Assembly (NCBI GenBank): GCA_044347345.1
Contig: JBIKUX010000001.1
Coordinates: 97,024 to 161,023 of the forward strand
Direction: 5' to 3'
Length of the DNA stretch: 64,000 nucleotides
Origin: Bdellovibrionota bacterium
GTDB lineage: Bacteria > Bdellovibrionota_C > UBA2361 > JBIKUX01
Of the stretch, positions 3,658-64,000 are shown piece by piece. Under the pieces are notes generated by a model. The model was not told the origin of the DNA. It searched no databases and saw nothing but the letters and a program-made list of their open reading frames with translations. A program made the position numbers and the translations under genes. Every line of letters starts with the position of its first letter. The stretch's first letter is position 1.

Positions 3658-3813
3658 AACAATAATACCTCACGATACTAGAAAACCAAGATGAGCAACT
3701 TGAAAATGATTTGACTACAAATAATTTCAAGATCAGTTAATCTATATCTTCTAGTTCGACTAACAATCGGTATAGCTTGAATCAGAATTAAATTATCTAA
3801 TAGAAATTAAATT

Positions 3814-5619: not shown

Positions 5620-5632
5620 TTAGAATATGACT

Positions 5633-6925: not shown

Positions 6926-7162
6926 CCAAAAAAATAATCTAATTAATAAAACCTAAAAGCCAGTACGAATTAATTTCCCTTACTCTCATCTAATCTAATT
7001 CAATCTATTCGAATTTTGCGCCTTCTCTAAACTCTCTAATGGTTAACTATTTAAAATAGTTATCATAAGCTACTTGGTAATCGTTTACATTAAGGGTCGG
7101 AAAGAGACCCCCTTAACTTTACGCTAGTCATGCCAGATTAGTATTTTTCTAAAATAATTTAG

Positions 7163-32136: not shown

Positions 32137-34158
32137 CTACTTGTCTGCCCGTTCTTTGTTACTTAGCCCATCAGATACTTTGAGTATTTTTTGACCAGAA
32201 AGCTTCTTGATTAATTCAATAAGCAAATGATTAGTTTTATCTTGTTGCTCAGCAAGAGCCATTAGGCGACGGTCTGTTTCGTTAACTGACTCTTCAATTG
32301 CTCCTACTACCTCAACCATTATTCGTCTCACCCTCGGGTTATTTAACCTATCAATTGACGAGACTAATTGGACACTATCAAGCGCAGTGCCACCAAGGTC
32401 ACGCTGTTTGAGACTTTCTACCAAAGATTGTTGAGCTCCTGCTTGAATTTCTTCAATTGTTTCGGTACGTAGAACTATAACACGACGTGGTAAATTTTTT
32501 GCTTCCTGAGATTTTGATACTTCATTAGCGACAGGAATATTACCACCAGCAAATATATCCTTTTCTTCATCTAAAGAGCCATCCTGACTTACTTTTTCGG
32601 CCGCACTGTGGTAAGTTTGCTCATCGTCGTTATTATTCTTAACTGATTGAATAGATTCAATCTTATCGGCTTCATTTTTAGCAATCTCTCCGGAAGAATT
32701 AACTGCTACAGAGCTATCAGCGCTTTCTTGAGGCTTTAGTAACTTTATCCCGATCTGAATTACAACTCCTATCAAAAAACCGATGCATAAAGCGGCAAAT
32801 ATCCGTAGAGGTTTTAAATTCCTTCCCTCATATCCCTCTGCGACCGACTGAATACCAAGGTAACTACCGTCTCTATTGAGTTCAGAATCACTTACTCTAT
32901 CCCGATGTGCGGTAGCGGTATCGTGATGTACAGATGAATTGGTGTCAAAGTCTTCTGATTCGATAGAATCTTTATGACTTAAATCATTAAACCACTCATC
33001 TCCACTTTTTTCCGTAAAATTACCTTGCTTGGCCTTACGTTTAGCAGTTTTTAATCCCTGGGCGTTGTTTCTGAGCTTTGCCCTATTATTACGTCTAGAA
33101 AGTTTTTTACCTTTCTTTTTTTTCTTTATGTTTTTTTCAATCTCATCAATTTCAGAGAATGCCTCTACATTTTGCAGATCACCTACAACACTATCCTCTT
33201 CATTTATCTCTTTTTTTGATACGTCAGATAACTCAGAAATTGAGAATTTTTCGCCCTTTTCAAAATTGTCTGATAATTGGTCTGGTAGTTGTTCTTCTGG
33301 ATTCTCTATTAAATGGGTAACTTCGATCTCTTCCGCTTGGACCGGAACCGATTCTTCAATAATAACTGAGTCATCTTTCGAGGTAGACTCAACAAATACA
33401 TTTGATTCAACTAATCGAGCTGCTTTTTCTCCAATTTGAACTACAAGCGCGGTAATATTGTCTTTACCACCTCGACCTCTAACTAAAGCTATGATTTCTT
33501 TTGCTGTATCCTCTAAAGGAGCACCCTCTAAAATGTCACAAAGTTCATCAAGAGCTACGGCATTATAAACTCCATCCGTGCAACATAGATATCTATCCCC
33601 ATCTTTGGGAGGTTCAGAAATTTCAAATAAATCAATAGCAAGATTCTTTGATTCACCTAAGACCTTACTGATACCACCATCTTCAATCGATTGTATCTGA
33701 TGGATATTTTCTCTGTATTGATCTTTTGTTAGTTGTGTAAGTTTACGATTTCGAAGGCGGTAAATTCGAGAATTACCTACATGAGCGATAAACGCTGTAT
33801 CTTCGCTAAAAACAATACCGGAAACTGTCGTTCCCATGCCCCAAAAATGAGGTCCAGATTCTGCGAGCTCAACTATTGCTTCATTTGCCTTTTCAATAGC
33901 AGTTCGAACATCAGATTCAAGAAACTGCTTTTTAGAGCGGAGTAGAGATTCCAGAGTAGATAAGGCAAGGTGAGAAGCTATTTCGCCTTTTGATGGCCCC
34001 CCCATCCCATCCGCGACAAAGAACCCCCTACTCTCAGATGAGCGGATAATTGAAAAAGCATCTTCGTTAGTTTCAAGAACTAGACCCCTATCACTCTTAA
34101 CAACTGAGCGTACGGATTGCACAAAAGATGCTGATGATTCGGAAACTGAATCGGTCAT
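32137..34158 (-). CDS. PP2C-family Ser/Thr phosphatase fused to a poly-Lys segment, one TM helix and a roughly 200-aa extracytoplasmic coiled C-terminal domain.
   Basis: PP2C motifs (FFVADGMGG, LCCTDGVY, GGKDNITAL). KKKKKGKKLSRRNNRAKLR stretch. TM segment (IFAALCIGFLIGVVIQIGI). Confidence 0.75.
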   Translation of the reverse strand: MTDSVSESSASFVQSVRSVVKSDRGLVLETNEDAFSIIRSSESRGFFVADGMGGPSKGEIASHLALSTLESLLRSKKQFLESDVRTAIEKANEAIVELAESGPHFWGMGTTVSGIVFSEDTAFIAHVGNSRIYRLRNRKLTQLTKDQYRENIHQIQSIEDGGISKVLGESKNLAIDLFEISEPPKDGDRYLCCTDGVYNAVALDELCDILEGAPLEDTAKEIIALVRGRGGKDNITALVVQIGEKAARLVESNVFVESTSKDDSVIIEESVPVQAEEIEVTHLIENPEEQLPDQLSDNFEKGEKFSISELSDVSKKEINEEDSVVGDLQNVEAFSEIDEIEKNIKKKKKGKKLSRRNNRAKLRNNAQGLKTAKRKAKQGNFTEKSGDEWFNDLSHKDSIESEDFDTNSSVHHDTATAHRDRVSDSELNRDGSYLGIQSVAEGYEGRNLKPLRIFAALCIGFLIGVVIQIGIKLLKPQESADSSVAVNSSGEIAKNEADKIESIQSVKNNNDDEQTYHSAAEKVSQDGSLDEEKDIFAGGNIPVANEVSKSQEAKNLPRRVIVLRTETIEEIQAGAQQSLVESLKQRDLGGTALDSVQLVSSIDRLNNPRVRRIMVEVVGAIEESVNETDRRLMALAEQQDKTNHLLIELIKKLSGQKILKVSDGLSNKERADK

Positions 34159-49009: not shown

Positions 49010-49474
49010 ATGAAAAAATCAGGGCCATTTCCAATTATTAAAGAAAAGGGTAACGGAGAGGTATCATATCCAATAGAACCTCCTCGTCGAAGGTATGATT
49101 GTGCTCAATATGAAACCTGTCTTACCATAGCTTCAGCTCTATTTTGGGATTCTTTTACTTGTCGTGGATGTAACGGCACTGTAAATGGTCGTCTTTTATG
49201 GCGATTTTCTAAACGGACACTTTCAAAGACACAGTATAGCTCCCCAGAAGAAAAAGATGACGATGATAAGTCGCTCTTCTACAAAACTTCCTCTCACACC
49301 GGCGATATTGAAAGTGTCATTCATGAAAACACATTGCAAACTAAAGTAGTAAATACACCTATTAGCCAATCATGTGGCAATACACTACCAACAAAGTCAT
49401 CAATTGGAATTGAATCATTAAATCCTGACTCTCCCTTCCCGTTACATCTTTTTAAAAAGTTATCATCTGTGTGA
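49010..49474 (+). CDS. Hypothetical small protein with an N-terminal four-Cys (C-x5-C...C-x2-C) putative zinc-ribbon and an acidic linker.
   Basis: YDCAQYETC...TCRGCNG. A DDDD linker. Sits between the convergent and divergent gene sets. Confidence 0.3.
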   Translation: MKKSGPFPIIKEKGNGEVSYPIEPPRRRYDCAQYETCLTIASALFWDSFTCRGCNGTVNGRLLWRFSKRTLSKTQYSSPEEKDDDDKSLFYKTSSHTGDIESVIHENTLQTKVVNTPISQSCGNTLPTKSSIGIESLNPDSPFPLHLFKKLSSV

Positions 49475-49517
49475 AAATTGCAGGGCAGTAGCTCTACAAT
49501 CTCATAAACGGATATAG

Positions 49518-50660
49518 ATGATAAATCGATTTTTTGTTGTTCCAATCTTTTTGATGCTCTTTGGTATTATCACCGCGCTTACCACTGGAGAGATAGGCAT
49601 CCGCATATGGAATTATTTTTATAAAGATTATCTTCTATCAAAAACAGCGAATATCTTTACCACCACCAAAAAATCACCTAACGAAGATACCGAACAAATT
49701 AGAGCAGGAGAAACCTTAAAAGGTATAATTCAACCAAGTAGTCATCGCGATATTGTTTATGAATTAAGACCCAACTTACGAGGTATTTTTGTTGGAGCTC
49801 AGTTACGTACTAATCAATTTGGCATAAGAGGAAAAACGTACTCTATCAATAAACCCTCAGGAGGAGTGATTCGCATCGCTGGCATAGGCGACTCCGTTAT
49901 GTTTGGATGGGGTGTAAGTGAAGAAAAATCATACCTTTCACTTCTTGAAAAAAAACTCACAGATTCAGGAGTAAAGACAGAAGTACTAAATTTTGCTGTT
50001 CCCGGCTACAATACAACTATGGAGGTTGCTACATTCGAGCACCGAGTTCTGCCATTTAATCCTGATTTAGTCATTATTCACTTTGTAAACAATGACCTCG
50101 GTGTACCTCAATTTATGACCAAACCGCCCTTACCTCCCACTATATTTCATTCTCAATTACTTGGATTGATAGTACCAAAAATAAATTTAATCAAAGAAAG
50201 ATTGGATAGATTTTACAATTCTTCTACAGGTGATTTAGAGGAAGAGGCTCTTAAAGACGATAGAGTGCTAAATTCTGACGTAATGCTACAAGGAAGCCCA
50301 GAGGAAACTAACGCTCAGTACAGATATATGGTTGGTGAAAATAGCTATAGAACCGCCATGAAACGCTTAGTTGAATTAACTAAATTACACAACATTCCTC
50401 TAATAATTTTATATGGAGGCGAAAATAAGCTTATAAAAAGGCTAATAATAAACGGAGTAGCAAAAAGGCATAATCTAGTGACAGTTGAAGCAAAACCAAT
50501 TGTTGACTCCTATTTTTTTACTAATCATCCAGATATTTCAAAAAGCAAACGGAGAGAGCTTCTAACTTTGTCGGATAAAGACCCTCATCCAAATGTCTTG
50601 GGACATTACTTATATTCGGAAGCACTCTATCCGGTTGTAAAAAATTTATTAGCAAGATAG
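49518..50660 (+). CDS. SGNH/GDSL-family hydrolase with an N-terminal membrane anchor.
   Basis: N-terminal TM helix. GDS motif block (IRIAGIGDSVMFGWG). A later DLVIIHFVNND block. Confidence 0.55.
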   Translation: MINRFFVVPIFLMLFGIITALTTGEIGIRIWNYFYKDYLLSKTANIFTTTKKSPNEDTEQIRAGETLKGIIQPSSHRDIVYELRPNLRGIFVGAQLRTNQFGIRGKTYSINKPSGGVIRIAGIGDSVMFGWGVSEEKSYLSLLEKKLTDSGVKTEVLNFAVPGYNTTMEVATFEHRVLPFNPDLVIIHFVNNDLGVPQFMTKPPLPPTIFHSQLLGLIVPKINLIKERLDRFYNSSTGDLEEEALKDDRVLNSDVMLQGSPEETNAQYRYMVGENSYRTAMKRLVELTKLHNIPLIILYGGENKLIKRLIINGVAKRHNLVTVEAKPIVDSYFFTNHPDISKSKRRELLTLSDKDPHPNVLGHYLYSEALYPVVKNLLAR

Positions 50661-50663
50661 TTT

Positions 50664-51620
50664 CTAAGTTATTTTTTGTGCTAGCTTTGGTCTTTGCAAA
50701 AACCAAACTACTCCTCCTAACAATGCAAGAAAAAGTACTTTAGCACGAAGCACAAGCGCTATACTGAGTGCTTCTTCAGTAGTTGCTCCAATTAACCCAA
50801 GAAAATATACAAAAGCTCCCTCCTGAATACCTATGCCGCTGGGTGTAAGTGGCATAGCTCCAACAAGTAAAATTAACGGCAATACACCAAACAACATCGG
50901 CAAGGATACTGTAGTCCATCCTACTGCCCAAGCAGCTACAAGAGTATTTATTGCTGAAAAGGCATGAAACAAAAAAGACAATAACATTATACGAACCAAC
51001 ACAGATTTATTATCAGTGATAATGGCCATTTCTTTGAGGAGTAATTTGGTATTACTGCTGATAACCGGCGGTAACCAAGATAATGTATCGACTAAAAGAA
51101 TAATACGGCTACGAACGGGTGCTGTACAGAGAATTAGAATCAAACAAATTATGAAAGCAATTACCAACACAGCGTAAGTTACTCCAGTAGGTAATTCTCC
51201 AACAAAAATGAGAGATAAAATAGCTAACGCTACCATGGCTACAAGTCCTGAAAACCGTTCAAATATGGTGCTTAAAAAAGAAGCCTTATACCCAGCCCCA
51301 TCATTACTTACTGCAAGAGTTCTCACGACATCTCCGCCAACATGGCTTGGAAGAAGCGTATTACAAAAATATCCAAGCAGGTACAGAGATAAAAGACGTA
51401 TAACAGATGGAGCAGATCCAAAAATAGCCAAGAGAGTGCGCCACTTTAAAACACTAATGTATAAAAGTATAAAAGATATAAAACAAAGACCTATTAGTTG
51501 AGAAGCATGTATCTTAGCTACTACCGTCCAAAACTGCTTGACATCTGTTAAGGTAAGTAAAATTCCTATAGCTATAATAGCTAGGAACTTCTTACCAATG
51601 CCAATAAATCTACTTACCAT
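50664..51620 (-). CDS. Polytopic membrane protein of the UPF0104 / lysyl-PG-synthase-TM-like ('flippase-like') family.
   Basis: 318 aa with about 8 TM helices. Overlaps the GT-C gene start by 11 bp, so it is in the same operon. Confidence 0.5.
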   Translation of the reverse strand: MVSRFIGIGKKFLAIIAIGILLTLTDVKQFWTVVAKIHASQLIGLCFISFILLYISVLKWRTLLAIFGSAPSVIRLLSLYLLGYFCNTLLPSHVGGDVVRTLAVSNDGAGYKASFLSTIFERFSGLVAMVALAILSLIFVGELPTGVTYAVLVIAFIICLILILCTAPVRSRIILLVDTLSWLPPVISSNTKLLLKEMAIITDNKSVLVRIMLLSFLFHAFSAINTLVAAWAVGWTTVSLPMLFGVLPLILLVGAMPLTPSGIGIQEGAFVYFLGLIGATTEEALSIALVLRAKVLFLALLGGVVWFLQRPKLAQKIT

Positions 51621-53616
51621 AAATATTTATCTCAGCAATTGACCAATCAAATATGGGATCCTTACCTATCTGTCTAAGACGAATGGCTTGGCACTGAGGA
51701 TGATCATTAAACCGTAGTTTAACTGGGTGTAAACTACTCCTTGAAAGATTAGCTTGAACATAATGTACAGCGGGATAATCTTCGGAACTAAGTAAAATTC
51801 TACTTTTACCATCTATTTCACAAGTTATAACAAGTCCTCGAGCTGCATCCGTATACCAAATGCCATAATCAATAGATATCCCAAGTACCTCTTTAGGCTG
51901 ACTCCAGCCTAATACTATGAACATATCTGATACTTGAGGTGCGCTACTTCCCCATCTAGTTTCATTATTTCCATCTATTGCTTTATAAAGCTCTTGAGGA
52001 TTATGTGAAGTATTAAATGTTTCTACCGGCAACATTTTAGAAGAATCTAATTCTGGTAGATTAATCTTAGATATTACACTATACTCGCCCACTTTTTCTT
52101 CAATAAAAGTAGCTCCTAGTGCAGCTAATCCTTTTTGAACAATATCACCCTGTAAATTAGTCATAACCAGAGGAACCGCCGACACTGGTAAAGCATCTGT
52201 AAATTTCTGATAATCAGCAATTCGAATCTGATTTGGCTCACCAAAAATACCAAAACGAACAGCTTCATTAGTTTCAAAAGCTAATCTATACCCTATCCAA
52301 TAATTTGTTCTAACAGCCGCTATATGATTACTAGAAAGCCACTTTATCAAAGCATCATTATCACGTGCTACCCTCTCCCCCTTAAAAACATGAGGCTCTC
52401 CTGGGGTTGCTCTACCACCGTAATAAGATGAACACAGATTAAAAAATATAAGTAATACAGTTCCAGAAATAATCAGCCATCTTCTGGTATGAAAACTTGA
52501 TAACGCACACCCATATATCACAGCGAGCATCGGATAAAGTGGCAAAAGATACCTAGGAGCCTGAACAAGAGCACCAAATGAACTAAGAATAAATATTAAA
52601 AAAGTACCTACTAAAAATGAAATCGAAATGCATATTTGGGGTAATGTAGCATTATCTTGTTTATAGGCCTTAACAGAGATAACAACAAATCTACAAACGA
52701 GAATAACAAAAATCAGATTAGCAAAAACATTGGCTCCCAAAAATAGGCTATTCTCATGCCAAAAACGCCTTGCCCCGAGGATTGTAGGAAGCGCTACACT
52801 AAAAAAGCCCTTGATATGAGAAGCAATAGATGTTGTTGGTTGAAATATACCAAAAGAGGCAAATGAATTATTAATGTTGTACCACCAAAAAGGACTACTA
52901 CCAATTAGAAATCCTACCACTCCTAAAATACTAAACTTAATTATCTCGATTTGCCTTCTATAAAATCTAAGGATCCAGAAAATATACCCAAAAAAAATCG
53001 CCACTATAGCGAAAATTATCTGATTATTTGTCCACCATCCTAAACCTAACACTAAACCTAAGATAAATATTCGATATTTATCTTGCGATAACACTGAATA
53101 TTTCACTAAATATATCGCTAAAAGAAGAGCAATCGTAGTAATAACTACAATTTCAATAAAACCTCCTCTAGCCATACCACTCCACACTATAAGTGGTGAC
53201 GGCGCTACCCCAACTAAAATAGTTGAGATGCGCGCGGAAGATAACCGTTTAAAGTGGTCTTTATTAAAAATTATGCTTGCAAGTTCACTTCCAAGAAGAT
53301 AAACGAGGGGGACAAGCACTATACTCCAACAAAGTGGTACCGCCTTTAAAGTAGCTGAACTTAAGCCAAAAATAGCAAAAATAATTGCTGCACATAATGG
53401 CTCAAGAGAGCCCATATAATGCTGTCCATAATAGAAAATAGGAACATCTTTACCCTCAAGGATATGCTTTCCCATCAGACCAACAATGGCTTCATCGCTA
53501 TCAATGGTAAAATTAGACGCATATTGAAGGTCAATTCGAAGTAACAAGCTTAATGCAGAAATAAACAGGATGAAGATCCAATCTTTTCTGAGTAAGTTAA
53601 CCCACTCTTTGAGCAT
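51610..53616 (-). CDS. GT-C fold membrane glycosyltransferase (PMT/ArnT-like, GT39/83-type) fused to a C-terminal discoidin-like (F5/8 type C) carbohydrate-binding domain.
   Basis: 668 aa. More than 10 TM helices. A DSDEA motif in the first extracytoplasmic loop is typical of the PMT/ArnT family. The C-terminal ~150 aa (AIDGNNETRWGSSAPQVSDMFIVLGW) resemble the discoidin fold. Confidence 0.6.
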   Translation of the reverse strand: MLKEWVNLLRKDWIFILFISALSLLLRIDLQYASNFTIDSDEAIVGLMGKHILEGKDVPIFYYGQHYMGSLEPLCAAIIFAIFGLSSATLKAVPLCWSIVLVPLVYLLGSELASIIFNKDHFKRLSSARISTILVGVAPSPLIVWSGMARGGFIEIVVITTIALLLAIYLVKYSVLSQDKYRIFILGLVLGLGWWTNNQIIFAIVAIFFGYIFWILRFYRRQIEIIKFSILGVVGFLIGSSPFWWYNINNSFASFGIFQPTTSIASHIKGFFSVALPTILGARRFWHENSLFLGANVFANLIFVILVCRFVVISVKAYKQDNATLPQICISISFLVGTFLIFILSSFGALVQAPRYLLPLYPMLAVIYGCALSSFHTRRWLIISGTVLLIFFNLCSSYYGGRATPGEPHVFKGERVARDNDALIKWLSSNHIAAVRTNYWIGYRLAFETNEAVRFGIFGEPNQIRIADYQKFTDALPVSAVPLVMTNLQGDIVQKGLAALGATFIEEKVGEYSVISKINLPELDSSKMLPVETFNTSHNPQELYKAIDGNNETRWGSSAPQVSDMFIVLGWSQPKEVLGISIDYGIWYTDAARGLVITCEIDGKSRILLSSEDYPAVHYVQANLSRSSLHPVKLRFNDHPQCQAIRLRQIGKDPIFDWSIAEINIYGK

Positions 53617-53630
53617 ACCGAATCAACTCA

Positions 53631-54848
53631 CTATACAAATCTCTCATATACAGAAAGAGTCTTTCGACCAGTCTCATCCCAAGTATACTGTCTTGCCCAT
53701 TTACGGCCACGAGCTCTTCTAGTATTCAAATAATCTGAAGATGAACGTAAATAATGAATAGTAGCAGATACTCCATCATCAATCTTTGTTGGGTCAAAGT
53801 AGAGAGCTTCATCTCCCAGCACCTCCGGAAGAGAGGAGGTATTACTACTTACTACCGGTACACCTGCTGCTAGTGCCTCAAGAGGTGGTAATCCAAATCC
53901 TTCATATAAACTTGGAAATAAAAAAATTGCAGCACCTTGATAAAGAGCCAAAAGATCATCGTCACTAACAAAGCCTATACATCTAACCTCATCTCGCAAA
54001 TCATTATCACGAATAAGTGCTAGTAAGTTTGGGAAATTACGATCATCTTCTATTTTTCCAGCTAAAACCAAGATGGGCGAAACTCTGTTGGAGAGCCTTT
54101 CAGCCTCATGAACTAATTTGTACAACCTGATTAACCCATTCATATTTTTTCGTTCATCAATACCTCCGACATACAATAAATAGGGTCGTTCCGAGGGTAA
54201 TTGATACTTAGCTCTTATATTTTGTATCAGATCGGGATGTGCTTCACCAAAGAAGCGGTCATCCACACCTAAGGGAGTAACAGTTATCCTATCCAAAGGG
54301 ATGCCGAGTAATTTATGACAATCACGTGCCGTGCACTCACTTATAGCCAATAAGTGCTTTGCTCCTCTAATAGCTCTAAGCTCAAGCCAACGAGCTAGAG
54401 TAAATCTCATATCCACAGATGCAGGTTTGTAGAGGTCTTGTAAAATTAACGGTATTAAATCTAGTACCGTAACTACATAAGGTACGGTTGCCCATGACGG
54501 AGCATCCATGTGAGCCGGAAAATGTAATAAAGAAAATTGCCGCATTCGTGCGCTTTTTAATTGTAGTGGATAGCACAACTGTTGCCTTACAGTTTGCCTA
54601 CCGCGAGGAAGAAGAGATATAAGATTTTCGATATAGGACGGTAAAGAAGACCATGAATGATCAAACATTCCAACTTCTACTTTCTCAGTAGAATTAGTCT
54701 CATTCAATGATTTAACTAAACCAACTCTTGTAAAGTAATCAAATAAAGACTTAACGTAGCGCCCTATTCCTCTTCCAGCATGCGCCTTAAATGTAGGATC
54801 TAAAGCACTACAATCTACTCCAACGCAGATACCTCCCGCTACCTTCAT
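53631..54848 (-). CDS. Glycosyltransferase family 4 (GT-B, retaining).
   Basis: C-terminal EGFGLPPLEALAAGVPVV motif. 405 aa. Confidence 0.8.
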   Translation of the reverse strand: MKVAGGICVGVDCSALDPTFKAHAGRGIGRYVKSLFDYFTRVGLVKSLNETNSTEKVEVGMFDHSWSSLPSYIENLISLLPRGRQTVRQQLCYPLQLKSARMRQFSLLHFPAHMDAPSWATVPYVVTVLDLIPLILQDLYKPASVDMRFTLARWLELRAIRGAKHLLAISECTARDCHKLLGIPLDRITVTPLGVDDRFFGEAHPDLIQNIRAKYQLPSERPYLLYVGGIDERKNMNGLIRLYKLVHEAERLSNRVSPILVLAGKIEDDRNFPNLLALIRDNDLRDEVRCIGFVSDDDLLALYQGAAIFLFPSLYEGFGLPPLEALAAGVPVVSSNTSSLPEVLGDEALYFDPTKIDDGVSATIHYLRSSSDYLNTRRARGRKWARQYTWDETGRKTLSVYERFV

Positions 54849-55960
54849 CGTTGCTCACTCGCCCGCCTACACGAAGAAAGCGTAGAAGATTCAATAAGTG
54901 TGATAGCAGATTTAGCAAAATTAGCCTCAGAAAAAGCGTTAGCCCTTATCTTGCCGGCATCAATTAAAGACCTACGAAGTGAAACATCCCGATGAACAAG
55001 AGCCACAAGTTCGGCTATCTCTGCATGACGCTTCTCTTTAAACAATATACCAGCCTCACCCATAGTTTCCGCTACAGCCCCTGCATCAAATGCAAGAACC
55101 GGAAGCCCCTCTGACATAGCTTCAAGAATCGGTAAACAAAATCCTTCATGTTCACTCATTCCGAGATAAACACTAGACCCACGGTAAAAAGCCCGAACTT
55201 CCTCATCGGCACAACCACCAGTAAAGCGAACAGCATCACGAATACCAAGCTCATAAGCCAACCGCTTTAGATGGAAGGAATAAACTTCGGTATCGGTATC
55301 AATACCAACTAACCATAGAGTACTTTTTTTTTCGATATAATGATGAAGGAAGTAAAATACCTTAAGAAGGTCCTCAATACTTTTATTAGGAGCAATACGG
55401 CCAACATGAAGAAGATTCAGATGACCAGATTTTTGAAGTAGAGAAAGGATACCCATATTAGGTGCGGTATTTTTTTCCTCTCCCCAACGCACTCCTCCAA
55501 CCGGAAGTGGTAAAACAGAGCAGGTAAAGCCAAGATTTCTCAGTTCCTCAGCATTAAAATTTGAATCAGCCACAAGTTGATCGCTTGCCAGACACAAAGT
55601 TGGAAGCTCCTCGTAGCCCCTAACTAAATCAGCCGCTACACGAGGATTAATGCTATAAAACCAATGAGCCGGTGTCATATTATGATAAACAAGAACTCGC
55701 GAAGCTCGCTTAAGATCAAGGTAGCTCTGATTAAGAGGAGATCCGATGGAATAATGTAATATTATCTTTCCTTCAAATTCAGGAGATAATGAGAGATAAC
55801 TTTTGGTTTCATTAGCATAACGAGGGTGAGTATTTATCGTAAAAATGTCGCTCTTATACCCACAATTGCTAAACGCATTACGCAATGCTCGTACTTCACC
55901 AGAAATGGCATCACCATAACTTAAAGTATGAACAAGCTGATGTATCTCTCCTTTTGTCAT
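54845..55960 (-). CDS. Glycosyltransferase family 4. Proposed start is the internal Met (MTKGEIHQLV) overlapping the wzm stop by ATGA; the ORF track start at 56050 overlaps wzm by 94 bp.
   Basis: EGFCLPILEAMSEGLPVLAFDAGA motif. Confidence 0.8.
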   Translation of the reverse strand: MTKGEIHQLVHTLSYGDAISGEVRALRNAFSNCGYKSDIFTINTHPRYANETKSYLSLSPEFEGKIILHYSIGSPLNQSYLDLKRASRVLVYHNMTPAHWFYSINPRVAADLVRGYEELPTLCLASDQLVADSNFNAEELRNLGFTCSVLPLPVGGVRWGEEKNTAPNMGILSLLQKSGHLNLLHVGRIAPNKSIEDLLKVFYFLHHYIEKKSTLWLVGIDTDTEVYSFHLKRLAYELGIRDAVRFTGGCADEEVRAFYRGSSVYLGMSEHEGFCLPILEAMSEGLPVLAFDAGAVAETMGEAGILFKEKRHAEIAELVALVHRDVSLRRSLIDAGKIRANAFSEANFAKSAITLIESSTLSSCRRASEQR

Positions 55961-56751
55961 AGAACTTCCGCAAACCCCTCGCGATAATTTCCATAGGTAA
56001 ACATTCCTAAAACTAAGGAAAAAGCACTCCAAACAAAAAGGATTAACCAATGTGTTACGGAAGGAATAGCACCTTTAAGAAGGATGGAATTATACATTAA
56101 GACTAGCAACGAAAATGGATTCAAATAAAAAAGTATATGATATTTAGTGGGAGCTACACTCAATGGATATATTATTGGACATAGAAAAAACACCAAGCCC
56201 AACAAGTTAGTAATTAAATGCTGTATATCTCTAAAAAATACATTCAATGAACTTAAAGCTAAGACAATCCCAGTCAAAAGTACAAACTGTAATACAACAA
56301 GAATCGGAAGAAAAATTAATGTCCACGGTATAGACACCTCATCTATCCACATAAATAAAAATAACAACGGTAATGATAAGAGAAAATTTACCAAAGTCGT
56401 CAGCACACTTACCACTGGAAGTATCGCAGCAGGGAATAATGATTTAGTGATTAAGGTACCACCCGAGGCGATAGCAATTGTACCTTCAGCTAAGGCTGAT
56501 GCACACCAGAGCCAGGGTAAAAGTCCACAAAAAAGAAAAATCGCATAATGCTCGACTTGGTTAAAGCGCATGTAATAGTGGAAGACCACTGTATAAACAA
56601 GCATCATACACAAAGGATTTAATAGCGACCACAATAACCCTAAAAAAGACCCACGATAGCGAGCATGAAGATGCCGCCCGACAAGGGCACTAATTAATGC
56701 TCGATATTTAATCAAGTCACGCAACAACACTATTAAATCTCCATCGGACAT
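55957..56751 (-). CDS. wzm: ABC-2 type polysaccharide export permease (Wzm/KpsM-like).
   Basis: 264 aa with 6 TM helices. The N-terminus (LISALVGRHLHARYRGSFLGLLWSLLNP) is typical of Wzm. Paired with wzt. Confidence 0.75.
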   Translation of the reverse strand: MSDGDLIVLLRDLIKYRALISALVGRHLHARYRGSFLGLLWSLLNPLCMMLVYTVVFHYYMRFNQVEHYAIFLFCGLLPWLWCASALAEGTIAIASGGTLITKSLFPAAILPVVSVLTTLVNFLLSLPLLFLFMWIDEVSIPWTLIFLPILVVLQFVLLTGIVLALSSLNVFFRDIQHLITNLLGLVFFLCPIIYPLSVAPTKYHILFYLNPFSLLVLMYNSILLKGAIPSVTHWLILFVWSAFSLVLGMFTYGNYREGFAEVL

Positions 56752-58003
56752 TTGGACTAAATATACCGACTCTAGCGGCTTCTGTTCTTATTGCAAAATG
56801 ATAACATCCTCGAAAATAATCAAAGGAGTAGCCGTCAGAACTATGCACAGCTACGTCAATAGAATAGGAGCCATCTGTAAGTTCCCAACTACCTATATCA
56901 ACAGATACCATGCCTATCTTACCTAAGGGTGGGACAACCACCTTTTCAATCAGAGTATTAGTACCTATCACTAAAAGTCCGTCACTACGATTAACCGCTA
57001 TGCCGAAAACAACATCATGCTGATCTTGATTCACAGTATACAAGATAGTTAAACAACATTGCTCATCAGAACGAAAAACATGCGCCACAGCACCTGTACT
57101 GCTTAAAAGAGCAACTTCTTTAATTTCAATTTCACGACTACCCCATCTCTCTGAACGTGCATCTTGCAATAAAGTACCCTTTTTTTCTTCATGCAACGTA
57201 TCAGACAAATTATTAGTCACTAAACTAGACTCTTTACTTGCTAGTACTTCCTCTTCGCGTCCAGCAATAAAAGCACGATACTCATCAATGACACGGCGGG
57301 GTTGTCCACGGTCTTTTACTTCTCCCCCTTCTAGCCAAAGTACTTCATCACACCATCTCTCAACCGCACCTAAATCATGCGATACTATTAATAGAGTGCA
57401 GCCCTGTGCCCGTAACTCAGCTATTTTATCTTTACATTTTGCCTCAAAAGCAGCGTCGCCAACTGCAAGCACCTCATCAATTAAAAGTATGTCAGGATTA
57501 GTATGAACGGCTAAGCTAAATCCAAGCCGCATAAACATCCCAGATGAGTAAGTTCGTACCGGCTCATCAATAACTTCATGTAATTCAGCAAAACTGACAA
57601 TTGAATCGAAGCAACGGTCTAGATCTCGCTTAGTGAGCCCAAGAAGTAACGCACCAAGATGAAGATTTTCTCTACCTGTGAAGTCTGGATGAAACCCAGC
57701 ACCAAGCTCTATTAGAGCCGCCACACGACCCTTTACTGATATTTCACCAGTATCAGGAACATAAATGCCAGTGATTAGCTTAAGCAGCGTTGATTTACCT
57801 GAACCATTTCTTCCAATAACTCCAACGGAGTTTCCTTTAGGAATTCTCAAGGTAAGATTTGTTAGAATCGACCTTTTACTCGAAATACTTTTCTTCCCTT
57901 TTCCCTTAAAACTCACGATTAGCGATTTAAGGGATGAATAACCCGCTCCAAGAGATTGAAAAGCTTTGCTTACTGATCGAATGTCGATAACGTAATCGGG
58001 CAC
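56717..58003 (-). CDS. wzt: ABC polysaccharide export ATP-binding protein (Wzt/TagH-like) with an extra C-terminal, presumed glycan-binding, domain.
   Basis: Walker A (GRNGSGKSTLLK). Signature (YSSGMFMRLGFS). Walker B (LLIDEVLAVGD). A roughly 170-aa C-terminal extension, as in O-antigen Wzt proteins. Confidence 0.8.
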   Translation of the reverse strand: MPDYVIDIRSVSKAFQSLGAGYSSLKSLIVSFKGKGKKSISSKRSILTNLTLRIPKGNSVGVIGRNGSGKSTLLKLITGIYVPDTGEISVKGRVAALIELGAGFHPDFTGRENLHLGALLLGLTKRDLDRCFDSIVSFAELHEVIDEPVRTYSSGMFMRLGFSLAVHTNPDILLIDEVLAVGDAAFEAKCKDKIAELRAQGCTLLIVSHDLGAVERWCDEVLWLEGGEVKDRGQPRRVIDEYRAFIAGREEEVLASKESSLVTNNLSDTLHEEKKGTLLQDARSERWGSREIEIKEVALLSSTGAVAHVFRSDEQCCLTILYTVNQDQHDVVFGIAVNRSDGLLVIGTNTLIEKVVVPPLGKIGMVSVDIGSWELTDGSYSIDVAVHSSDGYSFDYFRGCYHFAIRTEAARVGIFSPNVRWRFNSVVA

Positions 58004-58020: not shown

Positions 58021-58581
58021 TTACTTTGAAGGTTGAATAATATAAACGTCAGAAAGGTTACGATAGCGGTCAAGCTCTTCCATACCATATCCTACAAACC
58101 ATTCATCACCACTATACTGAAAAACCTTCCACTCCGGATCAAACTCAGGATTAACAATAACTCGCTGAATCAACACTGCCGCCCGTACTTCCCGAGCCCC
58201 GGCACGAAGAAGGTGCGTAGTTAAGTGTTTTAAAGTACGACCAGAATCGCAAATATCATCAACTAAAAGAATACTTCTATCCCGAGCTTGACAATCCATT
58301 AGGTCTATTTGAAGCTCTGGCGCCGTTACTCCAACCTGATCAGTTAAATATCCCATCGTCCGCACAGGTTGAACCTGCACTGTGTTAGTTAAACACCGGA
58401 CGAGGTCTACAAAAAAAAATAACCCTCCTCTGAGTATTGGTACAGCTATTACATCTCTACCGGTCTCATTATAAGTGTTGCTGCACCAACCAGATATCTC
58501 TCGAGCTATAGGTTGAATAGCATCATTTATTTGAGCTTTCGAATAAATTAAGCGGAATCTATCAGGCTTATACATCGACAT
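58021..58581 (-). CDS. hpt: Hypoxanthine(-guanine) phosphoribosyltransferase.
   Basis: PRPP-binding motif (LLVDDICDSGRTL). 186 aa. Confidence 0.85.
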   Translation of the reverse strand: MSMYKPDRFRLIYSKAQINDAIQPIAREISGWCSNTYNETGRDVIAVPILRGGLFFFVDLVRCLTNTVQVQPVRTMGYLTDQVGVTAPELQIDLMDCQARDRSILLVDDICDSGRTLKHLTTHLLRAGAREVRAAVLIQRVIVNPEFDPEWKVFQYSGDEWFVGYGMEELDRYRNLSDVYIIQPSK

Positions 58582-59796: not shown

Positions 59797-60816
59797 TTAA
59801 CTTTTGAATTTTAGCGACCCATCTTTTAGATTATTACGCAAGAGAAGAAATATAAAGCCTGGCACCCCTAATAAAGCTGTTATCACCCCAGGAGGTATTT
59901 CAAAAGGGGCGGCCACTACTCTACTTATAACATCACTCCCAAGCAGTAAACCTGCTCCAATCAGTGAGGTTACGGGCAATAAACGACCATGAAGTTCACC
60001 ACAAAAACACCGGGCAATATGGGGGCTAAGTAACCCGATAAAAGGAATAGGCCCGGTACAGACCACTGAAATACTAATTCCCACGCAAACAATTGACAAT
60101 ATTACCGCCCGAAAATTTTGAGGACAAATACCTCGACTACAAACAAAATCATCTCCAAATAGCATTAAATCAAAAATATAATGACGCTTAGAGCTAACGA
60201 CCAAAGTAATCAAAAAAACGGCCAACAAAGGTATTACCGTATAAAATGTTGAACCTTGAAAACTTCCCATAAGCCACCGTTGCGTTACAAATAGCTGAGT
60301 TGGGTCTGACATATATTGAAGCATTAAAGTAGCGCTACTCGCAAAAAAATTGAGGCATATACCAAGCAAAAGTATAATTGACGATTCTCTAACCAGCCAA
60401 GCAATTAAAAGCATCATAGCTGAAGATACGAGGGCTCCTATAAGCCCGAAAGCAGCAGCTGCAGAAAACGTAGAAGTAATGGTTGTAGAAAAAAACAAAA
60501 TAGAGACATATACCCCTAAACTAGCCGCAGCAGATACTCCAACGGTAAAGGGAGAACATAGGTCGTTACGAAAAATAGCTTGAAGTATTAAGCCTCCTAT
60601 AGCGAGAAGCGCTCCTGTTAATGATACAACCAATGCTCTGGGTGCTCGTATCTGCCAAAAAATAAAAAAATTTGATGAATCTGGATCGATAATTGATAAA
60701 AAATTAATCTTTACTGGCCCAACTAAGAGTGAGCCTATAAGTAAAATAGGAAGAAGAGCGCACAAAATTACAAAACTTATCTTCCAACCTAGTAAGCTAG
60801 TACAAACTTTTTTCAT
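59797..60816 (-). CDS. FecCD-family ABC importer permease (BtuC/FhuB/HmuU-like).
   Basis: 339 aa with about 9 TM helices. QIRAPRALVV (the RxPR-type motif of FecCD permeases). Confidence 0.8.
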   Translation of the reverse strand: MKKVCTSLLGWKISFVILCALLPILLIGSLLVGPVKINFLSIIDPDSSNFFIFWQIRAPRALVVSLTGALLAIGGLILQAIFRNDLCSPFTVGVSAAASLGVYVSILFFSTTITSTFSAAAAFGLIGALVSSAMMLLIAWLVRESSIILLLGICLNFFASSATLMLQYMSDPTQLFVTQRWLMGSFQGSTFYTVIPLLAVFLITLVVSSKRHYIFDLMLFGDDFVCSRGICPQNFRAVILSIVCVGISISVVCTGPIPFIGLLSPHIARCFCGELHGRLLPVTSLIGAGLLLGSDVISRVVAAPFEIPPGVITALLGVPGFIFLLLRNNLKDGSLKFKS

Positions 60817-60842
60817 GTCTTGTTACTAAATACTCACATCTC

Positions 60843-61730
60843 TCAAGAGTTTGGCGAATCTGTTACACGTAATAAAAACCTTCCTATAACCTCCAAAAGC
60901 TGCACCATACGCGGGCCAGGAATGGAAGCAAAATCATCGGCGATTATTAAAATAGGTATGTCTCGAGATGAGTTAAATAAACGATTTAAATCAGATCGCC
61001 ACTTCAATTTTTGATCCTGAGTGTCAGTGCCCGGAGGAGCTATCTGTATTATCGCATCTGGCCTAATCTTATAAATAGTCTCTGATGATAAACTACTGAA
61101 GGAGCTAGTATACCCCGTTATGGGATTGTTAGCTCCTATAGATTCTAAAAGTGAAGTATAAATTCCGTCTCTTCCCGATATATAAAGAGGGGTTAAATCC
61201 CCCTGACTAATCAAACTACCCACTAAAACAAGAACATCTAATTTTTTTTTAAGAGAGAATTTATCAACCGCTACCTTCATTCGAGCTGACAGTAATTGTG
61301 AAGAAACTTTAGCTTGTGCTTCTAATGCACAAAACTGTCCAATAATTCCATAGGCCTCAATGATTTTATCTATACTACCCTCTTCAATAAAAACTGTTGC
61401 TATTTTAGCTCTTTTTATAACCGGCATTAATGCTTGTTGTGAGGGAAGAAGGATGACCAAATTAGGACGAAGAGACAGAAGAAGTTCAATATTTGGATCA
61501 AGTAATCCGCCAAGTTTAGGCAGAGAATCAGCTTCTGTTGGATATTTTGTAAAACTACTAGTTGCTACCACTTTATCACCTAAGCCCATATCAAAAATAA
61601 TTTCAGTTGCTACGGGTGAAAGTGGAACAATACGAAGACACTCACAAAACGCGCTATTAGAACAAAGAGAAAAGTATAACCACACTATCCTGAGCAAAAA
61701 TAAGCTCGTTATTTTAACATAACCCGACAT
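60843..61730 (-). CDS. Periplasmic substrate-binding protein of the cobalamin/iron-siderophore/heme type (BtuF/FhuD-like).
   Basis: Signal peptide. 295 aa. Two-lobe layout (RIVPLSPVATEIIFDMGLGDKVVATS...LRPNLVIL). Confidence 0.65.
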   Translation of the reverse strand: MSGYVKITSLFLLRIVWLYFSLCSNSAFCECLRIVPLSPVATEIIFDMGLGDKVVATSSFTKYPTEADSLPKLGGLLDPNIELLLSLRPNLVILLPSQQALMPVIKRAKIATVFIEEGSIDKIIEAYGIIGQFCALEAQAKVSSQLLSARMKVAVDKFSLKKKLDVLVLVGSLISQGDLTPLYISGRDGIYTSLLESIGANNPITGYTSSFSSLSSETIYKIRPDAIIQIAPPGTDTQDQKLKWRSDLNRLFNSSRDIPILIIADDFASIPGPRMVQLLEVIGRFLLRVTDSPNS

Positions 61731-61792
61731 AGAGCAAGCTGAATATTTTTTTATATCAAGTAAGAATGATTTTACTAATTACCGCATCTTCT

Positions 61793-63760
61793 CTAATCGT
61801 CTGAAATAGATAGATTGGTGTCTATTTTCAGTCCTAACATAACTCTTGCTCCCGGGGAACCAAATCCGTAGACCTCTTGATATTCTTTATCTAGTAAATT
61901 ATCAGCCGCCAAAGTAGCAGATACACCCTTACCGAGTTCGTAAGATCCGTTAAGACCAAATAATACATAGGAGCCTAAAGACACATTTTCTGCGGGGAAC
62001 ACGGTGAAATTTCTATCTCTGCGCGGACCAACCCATTGAGTATTAAGATTTATTCTTAACCGTTTTGTTGCGATGTATGAAAATACGCTACGCGCTTGCC
62101 TACTTGCTCTTCTCAACAAGGCGGAACCGGTAGATTTATCCTCGGTATCCAAATAAGTAAAAAAACCTAGCCACTCAAATTTTGTAAAAATGGGAGCTTT
62201 AATCGACACTTCCACACCTTGAGTTTCAGCATTATCAATATTTTGTAAAATAAAAGAACTCGGATCAAATTGAATAAGGTTACGAAACTCATTTCTAAAA
62301 TAAGTGGTATCAATCAAAATTTTACTCGATGGAATGAGAAATTCGTAGCCGAAATCCCATCCTCTTGAGGTTTCTGCCTGAAGACTAGAGTTACCGAAGG
62401 AAGAAAATAACTGCGTTACCGTAGGAGCTTTAAATCCTGTACCGACACTACTATGAATACGAGATTGGAACAAAGAAACTGGACGTGACGCCGTAATTCG
62501 CCATGTATCCTGTCCTCCAAAGCGAGAATGATCATCATACCGGTTACCAATAGTCAAAAGACCTAACCATTCAGGCTGAATCAGCAACTCACTAAAAACT
62601 CCCCCGTTTGAAGTGCTACTAGGCAATAATTCGTCCTTAAATTCACCGAATTGTGAATAAGAAACGTACTGAGAATTAGCTGATTCATTCTCATATTCCC
62701 CACCCACATCAAACTTAAGCCAATCGATAGGCTTAATTACTTCGATAACTGAGAAGCGTGTTCGATATCCTTGAAATCTACTATCAATAAGATCAAGCGG
62801 TGCAGTTACATCCGCTTCATTAATATCAGTCAATTCATGCTCTGCGTATTCAAATTGTAAACGCTGATCCAGTAGGTCATTAAAAAATTCTGAATGAGCA
62901 CTTACTGAGCTGACAAAAACGTCATTACTAAGTTTTCGATTGGGGTCATCTCCCCCTACTCCTGCCGCTCTATCAATTTCAGCTTCACTCGATACCTTCT
63001 TAAGATTAAACTCTAAGTCAGATAAACCAACTCTGAGACCTCCAAGTGCGCTAAATGAGCTATTTGAATATGGGTCTCTCTCAAAGTTACCATCTCTTTG
63101 GTCGGCTGAAGATATGTTTGATTGACTCTTACTACCGCTAGCACTGAGTGTAAGATACTTATTCTCATCACTTAAAAGCAAAGTAGAAGTACCTGCGGTA
63201 GTTTCGTAATTTCCACTCAAAGCAGTAAGAGATAACTTGTTTTCTTTAGCTCCTTTCTTGGTAATTATATGAATAACTCCGCCAATAGCGTTTGAACCGT
63301 ACATTAAACTTTGAGGCCCGCGAAGAATTTCAATTCTTTCCACACCATCGGTGGTAATGTTAGCGAGATCAAATGAGCCTCCAGGAGTAGCTGGATTGTT
63401 AACTTCAACGCCGTCAATAAGAACTAGAGTATGCTCTCCGTTTGCTCCCCTCATAAACGTGGAGACAGAGCCTCCTGGCCCACCCGATTGCACAATATTT
63501 ACTCCAGGTGTACTTCTGAGTGCATCAACGATATTAGTTTGAGCCATGGCCTCAATTGACTCTCTATTGATGATGGTCACAGCTCCACCAATTTGCGATT
63601 GTGGTACCTCATCCTGATGAGATGTTACTACTAACGGCGATAAATCTTTGACGATAACGTCTTCAGCTTTAACATCATAGTTAGACAAAAAAATTGCCTG
63701 AATAATAACGAGCCCAACAAAAGAAATTGAACCGATATGATCGGAATTCATACTTTTCAT
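61793..63760 (-). CDS. TonB-dependent outer-membrane receptor (BtuB/CirA-like). Proposed start is the Met of the MKSMNSDHIG signal peptide; the ORF track extends 72 nt further upstream.
   Basis: Signal peptide. TonB-box-like SPLVVTS. Plug-domain motifs (IEILRGPQSLMYGSNAIGGVIHI). A long beta-barrel region. Confidence 0.85.
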   Translation of the reverse strand: MKSMNSDHIGSISFVGLVIIQAIFLSNYDVKAEDVIVKDLSPLVVTSHQDEVPQSQIGGAVTIINRESIEAMAQTNIVDALRSTPGVNIVQSGGPGGSVSTFMRGANGEHTLVLIDGVEVNNPATPGGSFDLANITTDGVERIEILRGPQSLMYGSNAIGGVIHIITKKGAKENKLSLTALSGNYETTAGTSTLLLSDENKYLTLSASGSKSQSNISSADQRDGNFERDPYSNSSFSALGGLRVGLSDLEFNLKKVSSEAEIDRAAGVGGDDPNRKLSNDVFVSSVSAHSEFFNDLLDQRLQFEYAEHELTDINEADVTAPLDLIDSRFQGYRTRFSVIEVIKPIDWLKFDVGGEYENESANSQYVSYSQFGEFKDELLPSSTSNGGVFSELLIQPEWLGLLTIGNRYDDHSRFGGQDTWRITASRPVSLFQSRIHSSVGTGFKAPTVTQLFSSFGNSSLQAETSRGWDFGYEFLIPSSKILIDTTYFRNEFRNLIQFDPSSFILQNIDNAETQGVEVSIKAPIFTKFEWLGFFTYLDTEDKSTGSALLRRASRQARSVFSYIATKRLRINLNTQWVGPRRDRNFTVFPAENVSLGSYVLFGLNGSYELGKGVSATLAADNLLDKEYQEVYGFGSPGARVMLGLKIDTNLSISDD

Positions 63761-64000
63761 GATCTTTTTTCCGTCAAACCAAAAAACCACAAACTTGCCT
63801 AATTTTTTAAATAAATTCATCATTTCAGGCATAAAGCCATTTTTCTAAACTTAAAATATTGATGCCCAAAGAATTAACAGAAGTTCTTCCCGCTCACTTA
63901 AAGGTTTTATCTAAAGCTTGTTTATTGAGCAAATATTATCTGGAGCTAACAGCTAAATTCGAGACATTGCAACTACATTTAACATTGAATCTATACGCTC

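Follow-up and report, generated by a model that had tools for sequence, protein, structure and literature searches.

What does a bacterial operon build when it joins a Wzm/Wzt polymer exporter to a GT-C glycosyltransferase (GT) carrying its own carbohydrate-binding module (CBM), and to a flippase-like protein of the UPF0104 family? We addressed this question for a 64,000-nucleotide stretch of DNA from a Bdellovibrionota bacterium (assembly GCA_044347345.1, contig JBIKUX010000001.1, positions 97,024 to 161,023; hereafter the window). We propose, with moderate confidence, that the operon directs a lineage-conserved cell-envelope glycan by the ABC-transporter-dependent route, and that this glycan would then be modified in the periplasm. 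A preliminary description of the locus, made from the letters of the DNA and a list of its open reading frames (ORFs), had instead read the GT-C as the terminal transferase of the pathway.

The ORF list gives six co-directional genes on the minus strand. These genes, and the parts of the 668-amino-acid (aa) GT-C that are discussed below, are as follows, with the evidence for each in brackets.

56717..58003, minus strand: wzt, ABC-transporter ATPase with a C-terminal carbohydrate-binding domain, Wzt_C (Pfam, phmmer)
55957..56751, minus strand: wzm, ABC-2 permease (Pfam, NCBIfam)
54845..55960, minus strand: GT4a, cytoplasmic GT-B glycosyltransferase, 371 aa from a probable ATG start; the ORF as listed runs to a TTG, 56050 (Pfam)
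53631..54848, minus strand: GT4b, cytoplasmic GT-B glycosyltransferase (Pfam)
51610..53616, minus strand: 668-aa GT-C glycosyltransferase, PMT_2/ArnT-like, with a CBM32 fusion (AlphaFold2 model, family profiles)
53488..53502, minus strand: DSDEA motif (D39-A43) in the first periplasmic loop of the GT-C, with putative catalytic acidic residues (alignment)
52423..53616, minus strand: transmembrane (TM) domain of the GT-C, aa 1-398 (AlphaFold2 helices; 10 hydrophobic segments by hydropathy)
52057..52392, minus strand: periplasmic alpha/beta domain of the GT-C, aa 409-520, with the conserved segment TNYWIGYRLAFE (AlphaFold2 model, alignment)
51616..52020, minus strand: C-terminal CBM32/discoidin beta-sandwich of the GT-C, aa 533-667 (AlphaFold2 model)
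50664..51620, minus strand: UPF0104 protein (LPG_synthase_TM; YbhN/AglD2/PplT family), a flippase-like membrane protein (Pfam, TIGR00374)

The gene junctions fit one translationally coupled operon of six genes. Specifically, wzm overlaps the 3' end of wzt by 35 nt, ATGA overlaps join wzm to GT4a and GT4a to GT4b, the gap between GT4b and the GT-C gene is 14 nt, and the UPF0104 gene overlaps the GT-C gene by 11 nt. The TTG start listed for GT4a appears too long, because the ATG at 55960 overlaps the wzm stop and matches the lengths of homologues (351-366 aa, against 371 aa from this ATG), and this ATG is probably the true start. A scan for promoters and terminators returned counts no higher than chance. 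The gene content and minus-strand operon given in the preliminary description are borne out by the ORFs, their Pfam calls and these coupled junctions.

The GT-C is difficult to place from its own sequence. Alone, it has no Pfam match at E < 0.01, no NCBIfam match and no match among PDB sequences; its sole Pfam match is F5_F8_type_C at E 0.021 (15.4 bits against a cut-off of 28.2), and PMT_2 (PF13231) does not appear even at E 10. Full-length homologues at 38-49% identity number in the hundreds, and we aligned the protein with 51 of them (52 sequences). In this alignment, 31 sequences match PMT_2 at E < 0.01 and 34 match F5_F8_type_C, with homologues at 40% identity reaching 30-32 bits for PMT_2 (gathering cut-off 26.1) over approximately residues 67-224. 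Of the profile matches anticipated in the preliminary description, those to PF14524 and PF03706 were found in the exporter and flippase-like genes (see below), and those to PMT_2 and F5_F8_type_C came from members of the family, the window GT-C by itself staying under both thresholds. The family profile also matches the CBM32 of ZmpB among PDB sequences (3e-9), and sugar binding by this module is putative here. Placing the TM domain by the same profile search was tried and abandoned, as it matched CBM32 modules only and no solved GT-C. A profile search of 1.84 billion cluster representatives retrieved 1,686 clusters at E < 1e-30, and more than 130 full-length relatives (counted as 50%-identity clusters) at E < 1e-180; the family is large and uniform in architecture.

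Conservation and structure prediction assign the GT-C more closely. The residues D39, D41 and E42 of the DSDEA motif are invariant in all 52 aligned sequences; their position after the first TM helix (TM1) corresponds to that of the DE/DxD motif of PMT and ArnT enzymes, and they are putative catalytic acidic residues. Further invariant clusters are R150-G-G-F-x-E155, W194-W195-x-N197-x-Q199 and P354-R355-Y356, and in the segment TNYWIGYRLAFE 8 of 12 positions are invariant and 3 nearly so, with T437, Y439, W440, G442, Y443 and E448 invariant. An AlphaFold2 model built from the family alignment (predicted local distance difference test, pLDDT, 93.7; predicted template modelling score, pTM, 0.91) has three parts, namely a helical membrane part (aa 1-398), an alpha/beta periplasmic part (aa 409-520) and a beta-sandwich (aa 533-667). 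Its top Foldseek match is AftD (8e-9), and PMT, ArnT and the oligosaccharyltransferases (OSTs) AglB, STT3 and PglB score alike. The model shows a GT-C fold of the PMT/ArnT/OST type, followed by an ArnT-like periplasmic domain and a CBM32/discoidin beta-sandwich; no WaaL-like fold, Wzy_C domain or STT3/PglB signature was found by model, Pfam or family scan. This agrees with the earlier view of the 668-aa protein as a PMT/ArnT-type GT-C with an acidic first-loop motif and a discoidin-like fusion, since the predicted membrane part is a GT-C fold and the C-terminal part a beta-sandwich.

Both halves of a polymer exporter are encoded upstream of it. Wzt matches ABC_tran (Pfam, 4e-19) and, at aa 284-415, Wzt_C (PF14524; 1e-24, 87.7 bits against a cut-off of 30.4), which is the long C-terminal domain noted previously and has a putative role in chain recognition. 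Its best solved relative by phmmer is the full-length Aquifex aeolicus Wzt (8dku; E 7e-66, aa 44-404), in an alignment that takes in the carbohydrate-binding domain of the A. aeolicus protein, and the NCBIfam models for TagH and galactan Wzt match at 1e-52 to 1e-63, under their equivalog cut-offs. Wzm, with ~8 hydrophobic segments, matches ABC2_membrane (1e-11, 44.7 bits against a cut-off of 26.9) and the model for galactan-export Wzm/RfbD (9e-11). GT4a matches Glycos_transf_1 (1e-25) and has no TM segment, and GT4b matches Glycos_transf_1 (2e-30) and Glyco_transf_4 (1e-8). Their relatives in PDB and curated sets are generic (MshA, sucrose-phosphate synthase, GlgM, PimA and EpsE), all far under family cut-offs; a PDB search for the sugar or acceptor of the pair gave such generic GT4 relatives only and permitted no assignment. 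The glycosyltransferases of the operon are the two GT4 enzymes and the GT-C, and there are no sugar-nucleotide synthesis genes in it; the lack of these genes, together with only two GT4 enzymes, fits a simple, conserved glycan.

The last gene encodes a 318-aa protein that, in line with the preliminary description, is a predicted flippase. It matches PF03706 (LPG_synthase_TM) over positions 5-302 of 302 (6e-41, 141.2 bits against a cut-off of 33.4) and TIGR00374 (6e-23, 81.7 bits against 43.2), and has 9 hydrophobic segments. Relatives of the UPF0104 type are the flippase domain of MprF and the C-terminal domain of archaeal AglD. UPF0104 proteins have been predicted to be lipid flippases, with PMT/STT3-like enzymes and AglD-type GT2 enzymes as archaeal neighbours (PMC5898192), and many fusions to glycosyltransferase domains have been described (preprint 10.1101/2022.03.11.483950). 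Among the operon-type loci with at least 3 kb of downstream sequence, 37 of 42 have a UPF0104 gene no more than 6 kb downstream of the GT-C gene.

Conservation of the operon was assessed by tblastn and clustering of neighbouring ORFs across 84 loci, comprising 80 from a scan of one genome per species and 4 from contig look-ups. Nearly all carry the labels of uncultured Bdellovibrionota, Oligoflexia or "delta/Proteobacteria" metagenome-assembled genomes (MAGs), and the rest are other uncultured MAGs. The large majority have the order hpt-wzt-wzm-GT4a-GT4b-GT-C, usually with UPF0104, and hpt, wzt, wzm and GT4 occur together in 36 of the 49 loci that extend at least 6.5 kb upstream of the GT-C gene. 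Operon proteins share 35-65% identity with those of the window in most loci, and 48-72% in the closest (L001). The usual neighbours in relatives are an M48 peptidase, a lipoprotein and S14 upstream, and a small four-cysteine protein, an orf262-like gene, and then Skp, FabZ, LpxA, S15 and PNPase downstream; the flanks of the window are also housekeeping (S1, MutS, an amidase, purH/purD, pyrF, RNase II, minCD and gcvPT). No sugar-nucleotide genes and no further glycosyltransferases are among the recurrent neighbours of the 84 loci, and L001 has one extra glycosyltransferase-like gene ~3 kb from the operon. An order kept at 35-65% identity in a housekeeping setting argues for a core, invariant glycan over a variable O-antigen locus, and is the signature of an operon that would encode such an envelope glycan and not a serotype-variable O-antigen. 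The previous statement that this is no textbook O-antigen locus is upheld by this setting and by synteny across dozens of species.

From the domain identities, folds, operon coupling and conservation that we observed, we infer the following enzymatic roles. Starting from common nucleotide sugars, the GT4 pair would assemble a simple glycan on a polyprenol-linked primer; the priming enzyme would be encoded elsewhere. Wzm/Wzt would export the finished chain, which the C-terminal domain of Wzt may recognise. By analogy with characterised systems, the GT-C would hold the exported glycan through its CBM32 and transfer to it a sugar from a lipid-phosphate-linked donor, the product being either a side-chain decoration or a periplasmic extension. 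The UPF0104 protein would flip this small lipid-linked donor across the inner membrane, and final attachment, for example by WaaL to lipid A-core, would fall to an unlinked enzyme. The presence in the operon of two membrane transporters of different kinds suggests two different lipid-linked cargoes, as expected for a polymer and a small donor. No GtrA, SMR, Wzx or MATE flippase is encoded there, and UPF0104, at the adjacent position, may be an analogue that fills the role of a dedicated flippase.

The best-matching precedent for this proposal is the Citrobacter youngae O1/O2 system. Its ORF12, the founder of GT136, is a GT-C with a C-terminal CBM inside an ABC-dependent O-antigen locus, and, drawing on an undecaprenyl-phosphate donor, attaches side-chain pentofuranose in the periplasm; its CBM binds the polymer in unmodified form, the acidic residues after TM1 (D31 and E34) are essential, and a MATE flippase (ORF14) and a donor synthase (ORF15) are encoded alongside (PMC11127046). 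Our locus resembles it in having a GT-C with acidic residues after TM1 and a C-terminal beta-sandwich CBM, in an ABC-dependent glycan locus with an adjacent flippase gene. It differs in that the GT-C is of the PMT_2 type, the CBM is a CBM32/discoidin module, an additional ArnT-like periplasmic domain is present and the flippase candidate is UPF0104 and not MATE. Furthermore, no donor synthase, phosphatase or epimerase is encoded in the locus, which is core conserved and not serotype-variable.

Other characterised systems share parts of this logic. In mycobacterial arabinogalactan and lipoarabinomannan (LAM), Wzm-Wzt galactan export is likewise followed by Emb/Aft GT-Cs that have CBMs and use polyprenyl-phosphate donors. 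However, those GT-Cs belong to GT53 and other families and are much larger enzymes with several CBMs, the donor pathway (DPPRS, DprE1/2) is known there, and mycobacterial Wzt (263-aa chains) lacks the C-terminal carbohydrate-binding domain. The streptococcal and lactococcal rhamnose polysaccharides (RgpCD with GacI/J/K/L or WpsA/B/G/J) also combine an exported backbone, a GT-C, an undecaprenyl phosphate (C55-P) donor and a dedicated flippase; GacL adds GlcNAc to the ABC-exported rhamnan, and WpsJ is proposed to transfer a whole C55-P-linked oligo- or polysaccharide onto the backbone (PMC10821137). These differ from our locus in being Gram-positive, in their Wzx-type flippase, in a GT2 synthase (GacI/WpsA) and activator within the cluster, and in having no CBM32 fusion. 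Periplasmic elaboration by a GT-C after ABC export is thus known already, and what sets the present locus apart is its core-gene-like conservation, the CBM32 fusion, the UPF0104 partner and the lack of a linked donor synthase.

Several observations weigh against the pathway that we propose. No polyprenyl-phosphate-sugar synthase (a GT2 of the GtrB/ArnC/Ppm1 type or a polyprenyl phosphoribose synthase) was found in the scanned window ORFs (those at 59797-63832 were not part of the Pfam scan) or among recurrent neighbours within 10 kb in the 84 loci, and with no linked donor synthase one leg of the three-component system is missing locally. Nor did the operon, the scanned window ORFs or the recurrent neighbours of the 84 loci yield a chain terminator (WbdD/WbbB-like) to be recognised by the carbohydrate-binding domain of Wzt, a role for which one GT4 enzyme could substitute by capping the chain. 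UPF0104 is adjacent to none of the 9 true stand-alone GT-C paralogues, and the cargoes shown or proposed for UPF0104 proteins are glycerolipids (lysyl- and glucosaminyl-phosphatidylglycerol, Lys-PG and GlcN-PG), not polyprenyl-phosphate sugars. Since the GT-C fold is shared by PMT, ArnT and OST, it does not separate transfer of a monosaccharide from en-bloc transfer.

The similarity of the GT-C to oligosaccharyltransferases bears on the role originally suggested for it, namely that of a terminal transferase which takes the place of WaaL and passes the lipid-linked glycan, once exported by the ABC transporter, en bloc to a protein or lipid, with a neighbouring SGNH hydrolase editing O-acyl groups. 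This suggestion was drawn from missing genes, and the absences themselves were confirmed: none of WaaL, a priming phosphoglycosyltransferase, GT2 (including the polyprenyl-phosphate type), Wzz or WbdD is among the scanned window ORFs, neither WaaL nor a WecA/WbaP-type priming enzyme was found in the 10-kb flanks of related loci, and no UbiA-type protein was found in the scanned window ORFs or recurrent neighbours. The only polytopic proteins in the Pfam-negative ORFs and operon region are Wzm, the GT-C, UPF0104 and one permease-like ORF (59797-60816), and no WaaL-like polytopic protein is among them or in the flanks of the relatives. In addition, AglB, STT3 and PglB fit the fold no worse than PMT and ArnT, the GT-C gene comes last among the biosynthetic genes of the operon and shares its conservation, and SGNH homologues pair with paralogous GT-C genes. 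We nevertheless regard this role as improbable. The genes for WaaL and the priming enzyme usually lie outside the locus in ABC-transporter-dependent systems, and their absence from one window says little. The sequence-level affinity of the GT-C is with PMT_2, whose characterised members use polyprenyl-phosphate monosaccharide donors, and the missing STT3/PglB and Wzy_C signatures point the same way. UPF0104 would be left without a role unless it flipped the acceptor, and the SGNH gene is convergent and adjacent to the operon in this genome only. Glycan-binding CBMs, moreover, belong to polymer-modifying GT-Cs (EmbC, AftD and ORF12; PMC11127046), and those GT-Cs of ABC-dependent loci that have been characterised take sugars from polyprenyl-monophosphate donors and add them to the polymer after its export; they do not ligate it (PMC11127046; PMC10821137).

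The SGNH gene and its counterpart in a related locus are as follows.

49518..50660, plus strand: SGNH/GDSL hydrolase, membrane-anchored, peripheral to the operon and possibly linked to it (Lipase_GDSL_2)
L004 8958-11998: SGNH and GT-C gene pair

The window protein matches Lipase_GDSL_2 (5e-12, 47.1 bits against a cut-off of 32.9), has a block-I GDS motif within IAGIGDSVMFGWG and bears an N-terminal hydrophobic anchor. Its gene had been described as divergent to the operon; it is in fact convergent, tail-to-tail with UPF0104, with stop codons 3 nt apart. Its adjacency to the operon is limited to the window and an independent, 100%-identical contig with the same convergent arrangement (L088), and the closest of its homologues in other phyla have unrelated neighbours; the SGNH gene was therefore ruled out as a conserved operon member. 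The identical contig (L088; JGI sample 3300042547, contig Ga0453236_0081263) is a 2,096-bp metagenome contig that covers window 49344-51439, and since no other relative of the operon proteins exceeds 72% identity, public protein collections appear to contain very little from the source organism.

A second GT-C that is not accompanied by the operon is present in some genomes (L002/L010, L036 and L083), and L083 and the operon locus L041 come from the same MAG. In four loci (L004, L016, L055 and L062) an SGNH homologue lies directly upstream of a paralogous GT-C gene on the same strand, overlapping it or a few nucleotides away. These GT-Cs and that of L054, where the upstream side is cut by the contig end, form one paralogous clade in a neighbour-joining tree, and this clade lacks Wzm/Wzt and UPF0104. 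The link between the SGNH gene and the operon that was suggested earlier is thus weakened by its convergent, genome-specific position, and a functional tie between the SGNH enzyme and this GT-C family is plausible. Two loci also encode unusually large flagellins (619 and 883 aa; L004 12001-13860 and L003 19043-21694), with FG-GAP inserts between Flagellin_N and Flagellin_C, close to GT-C genes, which may be a coincidence. Flagellin glycosylation was considered as a role for the GT-C and set aside, as such flagellins occur in only these two loci and are absent among recurrent neighbours.

The glycerolipid cargoes of UPF0104 proteins raise the possibility of a lipoglycan or glycolipid pathway that follows the logic of mycobacterial phosphatidylinositol mannosides, lipomannan and LAM. 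The GT4 pair would glycosylate a membrane glycerolipid that serves as the anchor, UPF0104 would flip this glycolipid, Wzm/Wzt may export as well, and the GT-C would extend the anchor or attach the glycan to it, with a product independent of lipopolysaccharide (LPS). A separate observation on related loci concerns a PlsC-like acyltransferase gene, which five of them carry between the GT-C gene and UPF0104, in the same orientation:

L006 3470-4993: PlsC-like gene
L008 5917-7173: PlsC-like gene
L038 9747-11018: PlsC-like gene
L040 11851-13146: PlsC-like gene
L073 8498-9754: PlsC-like gene

The encoded proteins (418-507 aa) have an HX4D motif (GNHPNMALD) and a hydrophobic C-terminal part, and the window has no such gene. 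This insert hints at lipid acylation in the pathway, and it is one of the points in favour of a lipoglycan. Another is that known or proposed UPF0104 cargoes are glycerolipids made by an adjacent glycosyltransferase, as in GpgS (GT4)/GpgF, HexSDF and MprF (PMC12713373; preprint 10.1101/2022.03.11.483950); in Pseudomonas aeruginosa, GpgF is a candidate UPF0104 flippase that adjoins the GT4 enzyme GpgS (PMC12713373). The GpgSDF (P. aeruginosa), HexSDF (C. difficile) and MprF systems resemble our locus in that a glycosyltransferase (a GT4 in GpgS) is encoded with a UPF0104 protein proposed to flip its lipid product (PMC12713373), and GpgSDF and HexSDF differ from it in having a deacetylase, no ABC exporter and no GT-C. 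Both window GT4 enzymes also match glycolipid-synthase models weakly (GlcN-PG synthase, monoglucosyldiacylglycerol (MGlcDAG) synthase, IagA/BgsA and PimA), the locus has no priming enzyme, and the operon is conserved like a core envelope component.

We consider a lipoglycan pathway possible, if unlikely. The GT4 matches are far under cut-off (53.6 and 39.1 bits against 480 for the GpgS family) and no better than those to many other GT4 families, and neither the window nor most of the loci have the PlsC-like gene. The carbohydrate-binding domain of Wzt and the likeness to polymer exporters point instead to a polymer finished in the cytoplasm. A more radical variant is that the lineage lacks a WaaL-type step for this glycan and that the PMT_2-type GT-C with CBM32 represents a new class of glycan ligase, which joins the polymer, after ABC export, to a glycolipid or lipid acceptor supplied by UPF0104. 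To this we give slim credence; if true, a Gram-negative envelope would contain an anchored polymer that resembles lipoteichoic acid or a lipoglycan.

The layout of the GT-C and the neighbourhood of the operon in relatives suggest one further explanation, in which the GT-C and UPF0104 genes are a separate, co-transcribed module resembling ArnT/FlmK that would glycosylate lipid A or core, its CBM32 docking on LPS carbohydrate. Parallels exist in Francisella, and the mannosylated lipid A of Bdellovibrio would need such an enzyme. In many relatives the lipid A genes skp-fabZ-lpxA lie 4-6 kb downstream of the operon (e.g., L089 13722-15567), and the window has at this position the SGNH gene, an ABC ATPase, a patatin-like lipase and SelO. 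Besides this proximity, a lipid A/core role is consistent with the ArnT-like layout (TM bundle, then periplasmic alpha/beta domain) and with the existence of stand-alone GT-C paralogues without Wzm/Wzt; PMT_2-type enzymes are known to glycosylate lipid A (PMC2233673). Nonetheless, we think this explanation rather improbable. Coupling of the GT-C gene to the GT4 genes is tight, with a gap of 14 nt, and UPF0104 overlaps it; the gene order is kept across deep divergence though other insertions are tolerated, and UPF0104 accompanies the operon-type GT-C only. The lpxA neighbourhood, for its part, belongs to a larger conserved block with pnp, rpsO and ffh, and is absent from the window. Comparison with ArnT (GT83) and Francisella FlmK also reveals differences: the family profile has no sequence-level match to ArnT in PDB, ArnT has no CBM32 and is not encoded with Wzm/Wzt, and its partners ArnC (GT2) and ArnE/F (SMR flippase) are both absent here.

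Upstream of the operon lies one more gene of the conserved order.

58021..58581, minus strand: hpt-like purine phosphoribosyltransferase, directly upstream of wzt (Pribosyltran; synteny)

It ends 17 nt from wzt, the start of which is free of any overlap, and it occupies the position directly upstream of wzt in most loci. The protein matches Pribosyltran (6e-19), reaches 96.5 bits for TIGR01203 against the 150-bit equivalog cut-off for hypoxanthine-guanine phosphoribosyltransferases (HGPRTs), and has PDB matches that are all HGPRTs. Its conserved place upstream of wzt, together with ribofuranose pathways based on phosphoribosyl pyrophosphate (PRPP), suggested a PRPP-dependent glycan phosphoribosyltransferase; we rejected this idea, as the protein matches 6-oxopurine phosphoribosyltransferases only and the gene sits in a long block of housekeeping synteny (in relatives, M48 peptidase, S14, Skp-FabZ-LpxA and PNPase). 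The gene is probably ordinary purine salvage held by synteny, and may be co-transcribed with the glycan operon. The ORFs to the right of it (59797-63832) look like transport genes, judged by sequence alone. Other inserts in the operons of relatives (MazG, MgtE, an outer-membrane-like protein, a beta-propeller and an M48 peptidase) were considered as clues to the chemistry and set aside, as from their sequences they look like unrelated housekeeping genes.

Three further observations concern the surroundings of the operon. A 154-aa protein (49010-49474, plus strand) has no Pfam match and a conserved four-cysteine motif (YDCAQYETC...FTCRGCNG), and in 33 related loci a homologue is encoded immediately after UPF0104 but on the other strand. 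At the left end of the window (139-9991, minus strand) are six consecutive ORFs (1172, 601, 430, 216, 464 and 266 aa) with no Pfam match at E < 0.001, most of which have an N-terminal hydrophobic, signal-like segment that suggests a cluster of exported proteins. Two adjoining PP2C-type phosphatase genes (365 and 673 aa; 30853-31950 and 32137-34158, minus strand) adjoin a SPOR-domain protein, an amidase and mutS.

If the proposed model of ABC export followed by periplasmic modification is true, an uncharacterised GT-C family would complete, in the periplasm, a core envelope glycan of a Bdellovibrionota branch that is widespread and uncultured. A bacterial protein of the UPF0104/YbhN type, and not a GtrA, SMR, Wzx or MATE protein, would supply the lipid-linked donor to the GT-C, a partnership so far only predicted from archaeal gene neighbourhoods. 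The practical value would be modest until a cultured or heterologous system exists. As for the biology of the lineage, the invariant surface glycan could be a lineage marker, and may matter for interaction with prey or host.

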